The translations under genes were made by a program, and so were the position numbers. Shown piece by piece: positions 47,086-51,810 of a stretch of 64,000 nucleotides of DNA; position 1 is the first letter of the stretch; every line of letters begins with the position of its first letter. Under the pieces are notes generated by a model that was not told the origin of the DNA, did no database searches, and saw only the letters and a list, made by a program, of their open reading frames with translations. The DNA is taken from positions 37,063 through 101,062 of the forward strand of contig CAIPOI010000002.1 in NCBI GenBank assembly GCA_903866625.1, given 5' to 3'. The stretch comes from an uncultured archaeon (GTDB lineage: Archaea > Nanobdellota > Nanobdellia > Pacearchaeales > GW2011-AR1).

Positions 47086-47168
47086 CGCCCGCGCCAGGAG
47101 TCGAACCTGGGCACCCAGTAAAGGGTCGAGCTTTCCAGGCTCGTGCAATACCGTTATGCGACGCGGGC
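47086..47168 (-). tRNA. tRNA-Ser(GGA)
   Basis: Hand-folded. Acceptor GCCCGCG/CGCGGGC. D-arm with GG. Anticodon stem CGAGC/GCUCG with loop CUGGAAA. Long variable arm CCC...GGG. T-arm CCAGG-UUCGACU-CCUGG. No encoded CCA. Confidence 0.85.
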
Positions 47169-47272: not shown

Positions 47273-47821
47273 ATGGGTGATGAAGTATTATTCAAAGATT
47301 GGGAGAAACCTAGCTGGAATGAGTACTATATGGGTATGGCTTTTCAGATAGCAATGCGTTCTATTGACCCTTCAACAAAGCAAGGTTGTATAGTTGTTGG
47401 TCCCCACCACGAACCTTTGACTCTTGGGTATAATTCTCCTCCAAGAGGCTGTCTAGATCATTTAATTCCAATTACAAGACCTGAAAAATATCCTTATATG
47501 ATTCACGCAGAAGAAAATGCTATAGCTAATGCTGCTCGAAAGGGGATTGCATTAATTGATTCAACTTTTTATATAACTGGCCACCCTTGTTCAGATTGTT
47601 TTAAATTAATGCTTCAGGTTGGTGCTAAAAAGATTATCTATGGTCCTGTAACTTCTAATCAAAAGTGTATTTCTCCTAAAGATTTAGAAGCCATAGCCCT
47701 TATGTTAAAGGGAAGAGAGGGTTTTCCTTTCGAGAAATTTTCAGGAAATTTAAATCAAGTCTCAAAACTAATGAGAATGGCTGCAGATTACTTAGACTCT
47801 GAATCAAAAAGATTAATCTGA
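47273..47821 (+). CDS. dCMP deaminase (ComEB/CDA family)
   Basis: HAEENAI and PCSDC zinc motifs. The ATG at 47273 is used because the track start at 47156 overlaps the tRNA. Confidence 0.8.
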   Translation: MGDEVLFKDWEKPSWNEYYMGMAFQIAMRSIDPSTKQGCIVVGPHHEPLTLGYNSPPRGCLDHLIPITRPEKYPYMIHAEENAIANAARKGIALIDSTFYITGHPCSDCFKLMLQVGAKKIIYGPVTSNQKCISPKDLEAIALMLKGREGFPFEKFSGNLNQVSKLMRMAADYLDSESKRLI

Positions 47822-48583
47822 AATAATATAAAAAAACTCATTTGGAAAGTTTAACAGCTTAGAATTAAGTTTTTTTCTCTCAAGCATTTTTTCTATCCAA
47901 CCCCTATAAGGAAAATTCATGGGTTTGCCTGAAACAGTAAGCTTTGAAAAGCTGACAACAATAAACTTATATTTTTTTATTAATTCAAGAATAATTTCTT
48001 CACTATACTTATGACCTTTTTTTTCAAGAACATCAAGAAGCTTAAACATAAAGCAAATCTCTGCGTTAGGAAGTTCTTTTACGTTTTCTATCTTGCTTAG
48101 ATCTAAAATTTCTGCTTTTCCATCTATTTTTTCAGATTTAAAAAAATGATTAATTATTTCTTTATCACTTTCATTGATATCATAAGCAAAATATTTTATT
48201 TTTTTATCAAGATTCATATGAGAAAATGAAAGAGGATTTAATCCACAACCCAAATCTACTACTGAGCTTGGCTTTCCTGTAATCTCAAATATTTCTTCAT
48301 ATAATTCTGGATAAATTTCAAGTCTTTCTTTTGTTGAACGATTACTCTTAAGCAATTCTAAAAAATCTCCAGTTTGAATATATTTATTTTTTAGTTTTGT
48401 GGAAAATCTAAAACTTCCGTGAGTTTTATGCAAACTTGCTTTTATTTCCTTTAAAGCTAACTTTTCATCAGCATAAGGATATTTTTTTAAAAATTCCTCT
48501 ACTCTTGTTTTTATAATCTCCCCAGATATTTCTTTATACTTCTTAGAGTTTTTTATGAGTTTTACAAGTTCTTTGGGGTCCAT
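47813..48583 (-). CDS. 16S rRNA (guanine1405-N7)-methyltransferase family protein (ArmA/Rmt/FmrO-like)
   Basis: Motif-by-motif match to my recollection of ArmA/RmtB: NSKKYKEIS, LHKTHGSF, RSTKERL, VVDLGCGLNPLSF, YFAYDIN, FMFKLLDVLEK, VVSFSKLTVSGK. Confidence 0.7.
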   Translation of the reverse strand: MDPKELVKLIKNSKKYKEISGEIIKTRVEEFLKKYPYADEKLALKEIKASLHKTHGSFRFSTKLKNKYIQTGDFLELLKSNRSTKERLEIYPELYEEIFEITGKPSSVVDLGCGLNPLSFSHMNLDKKIKYFAYDINESDKEIINHFFKSEKIDGKAEILDLSKIENVKELPNAEICFMFKLLDVLEKKGHKYSEEIILELIKKYKFIVVSFSKLTVSGKPMNFPYRGWIEKMLERKKLNSKLLNFPNEFFYIISD

Positions 48584-48620
48584 AATCTAATAAAGAAAAA
48601 GATAGTTTTAAGGTTAACTA

Positions 48621-49754
48621 TTAAACAATTCTTTCAAGTGCTCTTCTACCTTTCCAAACACACGAGCCAGAGCAATGCATACCCTGCATACATTTTGGAT
48701 TTATCCAAGCATTTACTCTAGGAACTTCTTGTGCATATTTTCTAGCTGTTTGAAGTGTGTTAACCATTATCTCTTGTTGTGCATGTCCGCATAATCTTAA
48801 AATACATTTACTTCTAAAATCTTCAAGCAGTCCTCTTTCTCTTACTCTTACTAGCTGTGCTTGAGGATAATCGCTTTTTGCGACTTTTCCTAAATCAGTA
48901 ATCCATGCTTCATTTAATCCATTAGCTCTAACTATTGGCGGAACGAAAAAGGCCTTAAATGCTGCATCTCGTGGAACTGCCATATTATAAGCAATTGTTC
49001 TATGTCTTTGTGCTTGTGCTAATCCAGCAAAACTTAAATTATAACTTGTAGAATATGTGTCGGCAAAATGATCTGGCCACTCTTCTATTTGAAATATGCT
49101 AAGATGCCTATCTGTTTGATTATCTAAGCCTTCAATTTCAAATTCTCCTAACTGTCCTAATAATTCTGGAATTACAGAAGCAACTTTTTTTTCAAAAGGA
49201 TTTCCAAGTTGTGCTTTTTCAGCTTCATATTTTCTAAGTTCTTTCATGAGAAAATTAAGTTGTCTTAGATTTACAGTATGCACCATTTTTGTGGGTGTAA
49301 AAACACTAGTCATATACCTTGCATTTTCTTGCGCTAACTTTTTGATATTTATACTTCTTTGAGAAGCGTCAGCCATTGTTGGATAAACTTCAGCTATGCG
49401 TGGAGTAAGTTTTTCCATCCATTTATCATAAAACTCTTGTTGGTCTGGATGCATATCTCTCATTACAGTATATCTCGCAGATTTTTCAGAACTAGCATAT
49501 TGTCTTTCATTATTCAGCATCATTGCCAGAATTTTTGGAATTCCAGACATGTAAAAGGTTAAATTAATATGCTCAAAAACACTATGATGTCCGCTATCTA
49601 AAGTTCTTTTAACTAGATCACTTTTATCTTCTTCTTGAAGAACCATCTCAAAATCTTTTTCAGTATAGCAAACTCTTCCACATGCTCTTGAGAAAGCCAT
49701 CCACTCTTCTCGGGTTTTCATGCAGTTTGTTATTGCTTTTAGTTGGATATTCAT
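48621..49754 (-). CDS. Divergent, long ThyX-like (flavin-dependent thymidylate synthase family) protein
   Basis: SGHHSVFEH. NERQYASSEKSARY is a degenerate RHRxxSxxxxSxR. A second QAQRHRTIAY is present. At 377 aa it is longer than the ~220-250 aa typical of ThyX. Cys-rich C-terminus. Confidence 0.55.
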   Translation of the reverse strand: MNIQLKAITNCMKTREEWMAFSRACGRVCYTEKDFEMVLQEEDKSDLVKRTLDSGHHSVFEHINLTFYMSGIPKILAMMLNNERQYASSEKSARYTVMRDMHPDQQEFYDKWMEKLTPRIAEVYPTMADASQRSINIKKLAQENARYMTSVFTPTKMVHTVNLRQLNFLMKELRKYEAEKAQLGNPFEKKVASVIPELLGQLGEFEIEGLDNQTDRHLSIFQIEEWPDHFADTYSTSYNLSFAGLAQAQRHRTIAYNMAVPRDAAFKAFFVPPIVRANGLNEAWITDLGKVAKSDYPQAQLVRVRERGLLEDFRSKCILRLCGHAQQEIMVNTLQTARKYAQEVPRVNAWINPKCMQGMHCSGSCVWKGRRALERIV

Positions 49755-50383
49755 TTTAATCTTTTTTCAAGTTCATTTAATATCTGCATATGAACAATAT
49801 CTACTTCTCTCGAAGCATCTATTATAGCAAATCTACTTTCTTTTTTAGCCATTTCTAAATAACCTTCACGTACTCTTTTATGAAATTCTAGTTCTAGTTT
49901 TTCAAAGGTATCTTTCTGGCCCCCCCTGGCAGTAACTCTATTCATGCCTTTCGTAGGATCAATATCTAATAAAAATGTAACGTCGGGATATCTCCCCCCA
50001 ATTGCAAATCTATTTATTACTTCTAATACTTCAATATTCATACCTCTGCCATAACCCTGATAAGCAATTGTTGAATCACAAAATCTATCAGAAATCACCC
50101 AAACACCATTTTCTAATTGTGGTTTAATCACATTATTCACTAGTTGGGCTCTTGAAGAAGCAAACAAAAGAAGCTCTGTTTGAAATGCCAAAGCTTCTTG
50201 TGAAGCCCCATGTTGTAAAATATTTCTAATTGCTTCACCCGTTGGTGTTCCACCTGGTTCGCGAGTATACAAAGTTTTATATCCAAAGGAATCAAGCTTA
50301 GCTATTAATTTTTTGGCTTGAGTTGTTTTTCCACCCCCCTCCGGACCTTCAAATGTAACAAAATACCCTTTTTTATCACCCAT
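49751..50383 (-). CDS. tmk: Thymidylate kinase
   Basis: P-loop FEGPEGGGKTTQ, TREPGGTPTGEAIR and the DRFCDST motif. Confidence 0.85.
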   Translation of the reverse strand: MGDKKGYFVTFEGPEGGGKTTQAKKLIAKLDSFGYKTLYTREPGGTPTGEAIRNILQHGASQEALAFQTELLLFASSRAQLVNNVIKPQLENGVWVISDRFCDSTIAYQGYGRGMNIEVLEVINRFAIGGRYPDVTFLLDIDPTKGMNRVTARGGQKDTFEKLELEFHKRVREGYLEMAKKESRFAIIDASREVDIVHMQILNELEKRLK

Positions 50384-51501: not shown

Positions 51502-51810
51502 TTAATCCTTCATCTCTATCTTAACATTAACACTTCTTGGAATAGAAAGTCTCATTATTGAATGCAGAACTGCCTCATTAGCAGGCAAATCAATAACTCT
51601 TTTATGAATTCTCATCTCAAAATTATCAAAAGTAGCAGTTCCATTTCCACATGGACTCTTTCTTGTTGTTATCTTAAATCTTTTTGTTGGAAGAGGTATA
51701 GGCCCACTTATATTTACGCCTGACTTTTTAGCCAGTTCTTTTATTGTAGCGCAGATATTGTTAAGTTCGGTAATATCCAAGCTTCCTAATTTTATTCTTA
51801 CCTTTGACAT
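51502..51810 (-). CDS. rps10: Ribosomal protein S10 (uS10)
   Basis: KVRIKLGS...ISGPIPLPTKRFKITTRKSPCGNGTATFDNFEMRIHKRVIDL is a typical uS10 pattern. Confidence 0.85.
   Translation of the reverse strand: MSKVRIKLGSLDITELNNICATIKELAKKSGVNISGPIPLPTKRFKITTRKSPCGNGTATFDNFEMRIHKRVIDLPANEAVLHSIMRLSIPRSVNVKIEMKD

Follow-up and report, generated by a model that had tools for sequence, protein, structure and literature searches.

What does a gene related to the aminoglycoside-resistance 16S rRNA methyltransferases do in the chromosome of an archaeon? The question arises from a 64,000-nucleotide stretch of contig CAIPOI010000002.1 (assembly GCA_903866625.1, positions 37,063 to 101,062; hereafter the window), in which a single intact open reading frame (ORF) with an ATG start encodes a 256-residue protein, the query of this study. 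The initial annotation likened it to ArmA and RmtB, labelled it an m7G1405 enzyme, and considered such a gene unexpected in an archaeon and possibly the result of a transfer event. Our analysis finds that sequence, fold and functional residues all place the query firmly within the Arm/Rmt/FmrO family, and that it is neither an acquired nor a producer-type aminoglycoside-resistance gene. Within the Nanoarchaeota phylum it is an unremarkable, inherited gene of a kind known since 2010. We favor, with a probability of roughly 0.7, the account in which this intact, chromosomal, lineage-inherited family member is a constitutive modifier of its own cell's small ribosomal subunit at the top of helix 44 (h44), with resistance at most a side effect. 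A new result concerns the base acted upon: the assumed target, G1405, is not conserved across the members of the phylum that keep the enzyme.

The family assignment made in the initial annotation stands, as hidden Markov models, fold, and catalytic and docking residues all agree on it. Pfam PF07091 (FmrO) matches with E 5.1e-20 and 72.4 bits, exceeding its gathering cut-off of 27, and a different Rossmann methyltransferase family is not indicated. NF000466, the NCBIfam equivalog model for the general Rmt family of 16S rRNA guanine1405-N7 methyltransferases, matches residues 5-255 on model positions 2-254 of 254 (E 3.5e-43), and the NCBIfam models for RmtC, E, D, B, H, G and F match more weakly. 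Among PDB sequences, m7G1405 methyltransferases are the only significant matches (RmtC 1.3e-18, ArmA 4.3e-14, RmtB 2.6e-11, Sgm 3.5e-11, RmtF 3.4e-9), and a profile built from 18 homologues extends over RmtC residues 9-280 of 281 (E 1.9e-31) and also matches Sgm (E 4.6e-25). The C-terminal blocks that the initial annotation gave for ArmA (SSTNERVATLNDFYTYVF, SILDFGCGFNPLAL, YHAYDID, VVFLLKMLPVLKQ and FVISFPIKSLSGKEKGMEENYQLWFE) are letter-identical in ArmA chain 3fzg in the HMMER alignment. The domain of the two N-terminal blocks is missing from 3fzg, and RmtB and RmtC show the same blocks (SKKY.. and ..LH..G.Y).

The structural evidence points the same way. An AlphaFold2 model computed with 73 homologues is confident (predicted local distance difference test 91.6, predicted template modeling score 0.88) and contains a helical N-terminal domain followed by a class I Rossmann domain. 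When it was compared to the PDB with Foldseek, the top 16 matches were all m7G1405 methyltransferases with both domains covered, at template modeling (TM) scores of 0.83 for Sgm, 0.81 for RmtF, 0.78 for RmtB and 0.69-0.75 for RmtC (0.69-0.83 for full-length matches). Generic methyltransferases come next in the list, with TM below 0.55.

The residues critical to RmtC function have been listed from cryo-electron microscopy of the enzyme on the 30S subunit and from mutagenesis (PMC10288597), and we mapped these onto the query through HMMER and MAFFT alignments. Thirteen of the 14 are conserved or conservatively replaced. The residues that dock RmtC on h45, h44, h27 and h24, distort h44 and hold G1405 (PMC10288597) correspond, with RmtC before the slash and the query after it, as K20/K15, Y21/Y16, R39/K34, K47/K45, R50/K48, H54/H52, Y60/F58, K204/K181, R211/K188, R241/K220 and M245/M222. 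K204, a lysine that is universally conserved, makes contact with N7 of the target base in its flipped state, and S107 and D160, which bind S-adenosylmethionine (SAM; PMC10288597), correspond to S83 and D135. The sole exception is K236, another of the docking and G1405-holding residues, whose counterpart is L215 with K214 adjacent; the loop holding the R241 and M245 counterparts (RmtC 237-246) is two residues shorter in the query. The contact residues for h44 and G1405 are thus conserved apart from the K236 counterpart. In the SAM pocket, judged against S107 and D160 of RmtC and R108, G135, D156 and D182 of Sgm, S83, R87, the DLGCGLNP motif and D135 are all present and nearly invariant in the 73 homologues, and D110, G112, G114, N116 and P117 of motif I are invariant or nearly so. 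Motif I as a whole, VVDLGCGLNP, aligns to ITDAGCALNP of RmtC and LRDLACGLNP of Sgm in the profile alignment. By domain, K15, Y16, K34, K45, K48, H52 and F58 fall in the N-terminal domain, and the C-terminal domain contains STKER (S83, R87), motif I, D135, K181 and the SGKPM loop (K220, M222).

The fold, cofactor use and ribosome docking predicted from these alignments and the model are well supported. In the mechanism that we propose, SAM would be bound in the Rossmann domain, and the helical N-terminal domain, by analogy with RmtC, probably docks on the h44/h45/h24/h27 surface of the mature small subunit of the cell's own ribosome. The enzyme would then probably flip out and methylate one purine at the top of helix 44. 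Should the bacterial mechanism apply here, the methylated site would be N7 of G1405. Such an enzyme would probably act as a constitutive ribosome-modification enzyme of the lineage, and insensitivity to 4,6-disubstituted aminoglycosides would be at most a by-product.

The distribution of the gene fits an inherited, chromosomal role. The host, a Woesearchaeota/Pacearchaeota-type DPANN archaeon of the Nanoarchaeota, has a 726-kb genome in 8 contigs that is ~89% complete and includes an archaeal 16S rRNA gene. A whole-genome PF07091 search returns the same single locus, flanked by thymidylate-metabolism genes on a chromosomal contig of 173 kb and neither on a plasmid or transposon nor in an aminoglycoside biosynthesis cluster. 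Across the phylum, 229 of 401 good genomes (57%) and 150 of 281 genera have PF07091, nearly always in one copy, and none of 14 control genomes does, four model archaea among them. With an archaeal orthologue published as early as 2010 (PMC2896518), the view that such a gene is unexpected in an archaeon does not hold. The suspected transfer event likewise gives way to a common single-copy chromosomal gene: all 54 related loci from species-representative genomes are titled as Nanoarchaeota, Woesearchaeota, Pacearchaeota or Nanoarchaeia metagenome-assembled genomes (MAGs), a few of these being evidently mislabeled bins. Searching a library of 1.84 billion representatives gave 1309 clusters (50% identity) with E<=1e-3, of which 137 reached E<=1e-30. 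Of 240 homologues, the best 120 are environmental proteins that share 40-80% identity with the query, as compared to 20-29% for the bacterial enzymes. Neighbors in 62 related loci are housekeeping genes. In loci outside the query's own these include S10, EF-1alpha/EF-2-type GTPases (14 loci), a divergent signal peptidase (14 loci), DnaG and TFS, and neighbor clustering of the related loci found no resistance, antibiotic-biosynthesis or mobility family (transposase, integrase) among the conserved neighbors.

In the gene tree a single long branch (99/98), set apart and attached next to the query's subclade, unites RmtC, Sgm and ArmA. The tree is unrooted and holds three bacterial sequences, and we rejected reading from it whether the bacterial or the archaeal enzymes came first. 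Inside the query's GTDB family the tree is at odds with taxonomy, with three very different FmrO lineages (one in four genomes, one in two, and that of the query's genus), which suggests either replacement or transfer within the phylum or extreme differences in rate. One of the FmrO lineages in this family is fast-evolving, reading GCGVNGFSY for GCGLNPLS and E for D135. We also observed homologues nested among Woesearchaeota in a record titled 'Parcubacteria group bacterium' (NYZP01000016.1) and in several 'uncultured Methanosarcinales archaeon' contigs; these records are probably mislabeled or misbinned.

We turned to the target base by reading helix 44 in relatives, from full-length 16S genes (Rfam-confirmed) and from 16S 3' ends confirmed by flanking sequence. 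Two types are present. The universal type (...CCGCCCGUCA... / ...AAGUCG...) has G1405-C1496, and the variant type (...CCGCCCAUCA... / ...AAGUUG...) has A1405-U1496. Covariation between the two positions is perfect, with A-U in 12 of 12 genes of the variant type and G-C in all others. The 12 verified Nanoarchaeota 16S genes in which A1405-U1496 replaces the near-universal G1405-C1496 represent at least eight GTDB families. Matches to the A1405 pattern in four further genomes lay outside 16S genes and were discarded. G1401, by comparison, is present in every verified 16S, and at the drug site the relatives resemble bacteria in having A1408, U1406 and U1495. Position 1400 in the decoding center is considered a universally conserved C, and many of the 16S genes at nine loci have U there (read CACACUGCCC).

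Several observations weigh against the favored account. Firstly, NF000466 carries a curated cut-off of 250 bits, and the query's 147.8 bits do not make it an Rmt equivalog by the NCBI threshold; its scores against the RmtB to RmtH subfamily 'exception' models are likewise far under every cut-off. Secondly, the window genome's own h44 is missing, as its 16S gene is cut off by the end of a contig at model position 1179, and no 3' fragment was found elsewhere in the assembly. Thirdly, nine of the 12 A-U genomes encode an intact, full-length homologue. Fourthly, one of these nine (G005/G442) belongs to the query's own GTDB genus, and its enzyme is RmtC-like at all mapped positions except the R211 counterpart. 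Finally, in Nanoarchaeum equitans, which carries the family member NEQ545, the RNase T1 fragment UC(Am)(Am)Gp covering nucleotides 1406-1410 has been observed (PMC5389701). RNase T1 does not cleave after N7-methylguanosine (PMC2790879, PMC7668247), and by implication the molecules that yielded the fragment had G1405 without N7 methylation. This reading is ours, as Seistrup et al. do not discuss NEQ545.

The most serious rival that these data raise, to which we give tentative weight, keeps the same family and docking surface and has the archaeal branch methylate a nucleotide other than G1405. The N. equitans fragment and the A1405 lineages together make such a target a serious candidate, most likely N7 of the invariant G1401, four bases upstream, and less likely the purine at 1405, whether G or A. 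The A-U genomes offer much in its favor. Their enzymes retain the SAM-binding residues and the K204 counterpart, no A1405-specific changes were found at the counterparts of H54, K204, K236 and Y60, and intact enzymes with RmtC-like signatures occur in at least five GTDB families with A1405-U1496. The homologue shows no depletion in A-U genomes against the 57% background. The enzymes of two congeneric A-U genomes (G084, G183) share 64% identity, and their ratio of nonsynonymous to synonymous substitution rates (dN/dS) is 0.19-0.33, which indicates that the gene is under purifying selection there. The genome from the query's genus, whose 16S is the closest full 16S to the window's partial gene (92.0% over 1147 nucleotides), keeps the methyltransferase in the same S10-NT5C-Tmk neighborhood. 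The study of N. equitans, in which 16S nucleotides 1390-1446 were analyzed by matrix-assisted laser desorption/ionization mass spectrometry and RiboMeth-seq (Seistrup et al., PMC5389701), assigned Am1408, Am1409, Cm1402 and a base methylation on U1406 or C1407; fragments containing nucleotide 1402 were missing, and a sequence ambiguity at G1401 suggested modification (PMC5389701). The shortened 237-246 loop and the variable K236 counterpart would also be in keeping with another target.

Other observations favor G1405. The query conserves the residues with which RmtC docks, distorts h44 and holds G1405, K236 excepted, which predicts the same geometry. The evidence from N. equitans is indirect and comes from work with other aims than m7G, and NEQ545 is very divergent, with one helix missing, and may not represent the query's subclade. 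As loss of the target would predict, the homologue has decayed in one A-U genome, where the pseudogene (G065:C27:40873-41649) has five in-frame stops (one TGA, two TAG, two TAA), and is absent from two others (G031, G039). The three Pacearchaeota genomes (G443, G445, G449) whose enzymes are the query's nearest relatives outside its genus have 16S of the G-C type, and a metagenome fragment sharing a 35-mer (94% over the last 584 nucleotides, 89% overall) is also G1405-C1496. In its strongest form, about which we are rather doubtful, the rival would hold that the Nanoarchaeota/DPANN branch is not a G1405 methyltransferase at all and installs an undescribed native decoding-center modification, for instance m7G1401 or N7 methylation of the purine at 1405; a housekeeping family would then have given rise to the bacterial resistance enzymes by retargeting, or be their sister. 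The m7G1405 label of the initial annotation is thus sound as to family and not secure as to target, for the archaeal branch as a whole, given that the enzyme persists in relatives whose position 1405 is A.

It is unlikely that the gene is kept for protection from environmental 4,6-disubstituted deoxystreptamine aminoglycosides, with resistance selected even though inheritance is vertical. All characterized members of the family do confer such resistance (PMC10288597, PMC2896518), the drug-site nucleotides of relatives are bacterial-like, and a patchy presence in 57% of genomes is what an accessory trait might show. However, the gene is single-copy and often adjoins translation genes, its carriers come from many habitats (marine, groundwater, lake and sediment, by MAG title), and it is retained where position 1405 is A.

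A further idea, that the protein replaces a missing KsgA/Dim1 as a late checkpoint of small-subunit assembly, with binding outweighing methylation, has only a slim chance of being correct. It would explain retention alongside A1405, and RmtC binds the same h44/h45/h24/h27 surface. KsgA/Dim1 (PF00398) was not found in the window genome, versus a match in 14 of 14 controls, and hyperthermophilic Nanoarchaeota are reported to be without it (PMC5389701). On the other side, SAM-binding and catalytic residues are conserved in all lineages, which argues for a working methyltransferase, and no catalytically dead variant was seen. As a general rule replacement was rejected: among the 401 genomes 58 have both families, 25 KsgA only, 171 FmrO only and 147 neither, so that the two are not complementary and co-occur with an odds ratio of 2.0 (p 0.009, without phylogenetic correction). 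Full-length KsgA matches (E<=1e-20) occur in 83 of the 401, and weaker matches span only the generic SAM motif. The absence of KsgA reported for three hyperthermophilic Nanoarchaeota would then extend to most of the phylum, allowing that very divergent copies may be missed.

Least probable of all is recent horizontal acquisition from bacteria, as a mobile resistance gene or a producer's self-resistance gene, for which one may cite the bacterial provenance of the known family, a GC content (0.29) slightly under that of the flanks (0.33-0.36), a tRNA-Ser 650 nucleotides away and the hint of within-phylum exchange in a single GTDB family, but which is very unlikely given that a GC of 0.29 is within the window's normal range and that no mobile-element or antibiotic-biosynthesis family is found among the conserved neighbors, and which also has against it the Nanoarchaeota-type company of the homologues, their low identity to the separately branching bacterial enzymes, and a gene order common to the genus.

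Table 1. Parts of the methyltransferase gene and its flanking genes, in window coordinates.
Feature	Coordinates	Strand	Basis and remarks
FmrO/Arm/Rmt-family SAM-dependent rRNA methyltransferase, complete coding sequence	47813..48583	-	256 aa + stop, ATG start; ORF list, PF07091, NF000466, AlphaFold2, Foldseek
N-terminal helical domain, ~residues 1-72	48368..48583	-	helices 3-11, 21-34, 40-55, 62-71 in model
C-terminal Rossmann-fold methyltransferase domain, ~residues 73-256	47816..48367	-	RmtC, Sgm, ArmA alignments; strand/helix order in model
SAM-binding motif I, residues 108-117	48233..48262	-	alignment, conservation in 73 homologues
K181 codon, counterpart of RmtC K204	48041..48043	-	alignments; K204 role from PMC10288597
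Spacer, thyX-like stop to methyltransferase ATG, 37 nucleotides	48584..48620	-	sequence reading
thyX-like	48621-49754	-	Pfam Thy1 2.7e-25; upstream, co-directional
tmk	49751-50383	-	Pfam Thymidylate_kin 4.7e-55; upstream, co-directional
dCMP deaminase (probable start)	47273..47821	+	Pfam dCMP_cyt_deam_1 3e-19; convergent

The dCMP deaminase and ThyX-like genes between which the initial annotation saw the methyltransferase wedged (Table 1) are both confirmed, but the wedge is conserved only within the genus: the gene order S10, NT5C, ThyX, Tmk, Rmt was seen again solely in relatives from the same genus. We rejected a functional operon link to thymidylate metabolism, as the tmk/thyX/NT5C/dCMP-deaminase set is restricted to those relatives and absent from at least 50 other loci. 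The tmk and thyX-like genes are genus-level context that lies outside the enzyme's function. An S10 gene stands ~120 nucleotides upstream of the methyltransferase on the same strand in three Woesearchaeota genomes, and the window's own S10 (51502-51810) lies 3 kb upstream, again on the same strand, with the thymidylate genes intervening. S10-Rmt may be the older arrangement.

The 3' end of the dCMP deaminase gene overlaps the methyltransferase stop by 9 nucleotides. Its longest ORF begins at 47156 and overlaps tRNA-Ser(GGA) (47086-47168) on the opposite strand; the true start is probably the ATG given in the table, because the deaminase domain begins at about residue 53 of this longest ORF. 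The ThyX-like protein has 377 residues, of which only 24-197 match Thy1/ThyX. It scores 76.7 bits against TIGR02170 (cut-off 87.9), and its C-terminal 180 residues match no family. An A/T-rich TTAAAA sits ~27 nucleotides upstream of the methyltransferase ATG and is possibly a promoter of the gene's own, a putative assignment made from the letters.

Taken by itself the gene is ordinary, one more member of an archaeal Arm/Rmt branch noticed in 2010 and common in DPANN. Its wider relevance lies in how such genes are counted and named. Annotation pipelines already label environmental homologues '16S rRNA (guanine(1405)-N(7))-methyltransferase', and genes of this kind should not be tallied as acquired aminoglycoside resistance in resistome surveys of environmental metagenomes. 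Several lineages retain the enzyme although they have A1405 and a compensating U1496, which provides a concrete and testable reason to doubt the annotated function, and this mismatch of enzyme and target base suggests that the decoding center of these reduced ribosomes carries a native modification still to be mapped.

Among known systems the nearest in kind is NEQ545 of N. equitans, reported in 2010 as the first archaeal Arm-family orthologue (Husain et al., PMC2896518), which was also the only work on archaeal or DPANN m7G1405 that turned up in the literature. Like the query, NEQ545 is archaeal and chromosomal, belongs to the same family and phylum and conserves the catalytic-domain motifs. 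By its published description, however, it is strongly diverged and one N-terminal helix is missing, whereas the query has a full N-terminal domain with RmtC-like docking residues. RmtC (PDB 6PQB and 6CN0, and 8GHU with 30S) is the query's best PDB sequence match, at ~26% identity, and has the same two-domain fold. Its N1 and N2 subdomains, which dock on 16S h45/h44/h27/h24, are the counterpart of the query's N-terminal domain, but N2 has an insertion of ~20 residues that the query is without, and RmtC is acquired and borne on plasmids or transposons, while the query is chromosomal in an archaeon. The best structural match is Sgm (PDB 3LCU/3LCV; root-mean-square deviation 3.1 A over ~270 columns), whose SAM contacts R108, D156 and D182 correspond to R87, D135 and the motif III region of the query. 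Sgm, 22% identical to the query, is the producer self-resistance m7G1405 enzyme of Micromonospora zionensis; the query, in contrast, comes from a low-GC archaeon and is not accompanied by aminoglycoside biosynthesis genes. ArmA, RmtB and RmtF (PDB 3FZG, 3FRH and 6PI9) have motif blocks in common with the query, at TM 0.59-0.81, but they are mobile resistance genes of Gram-negative bacteria, and the query is not.

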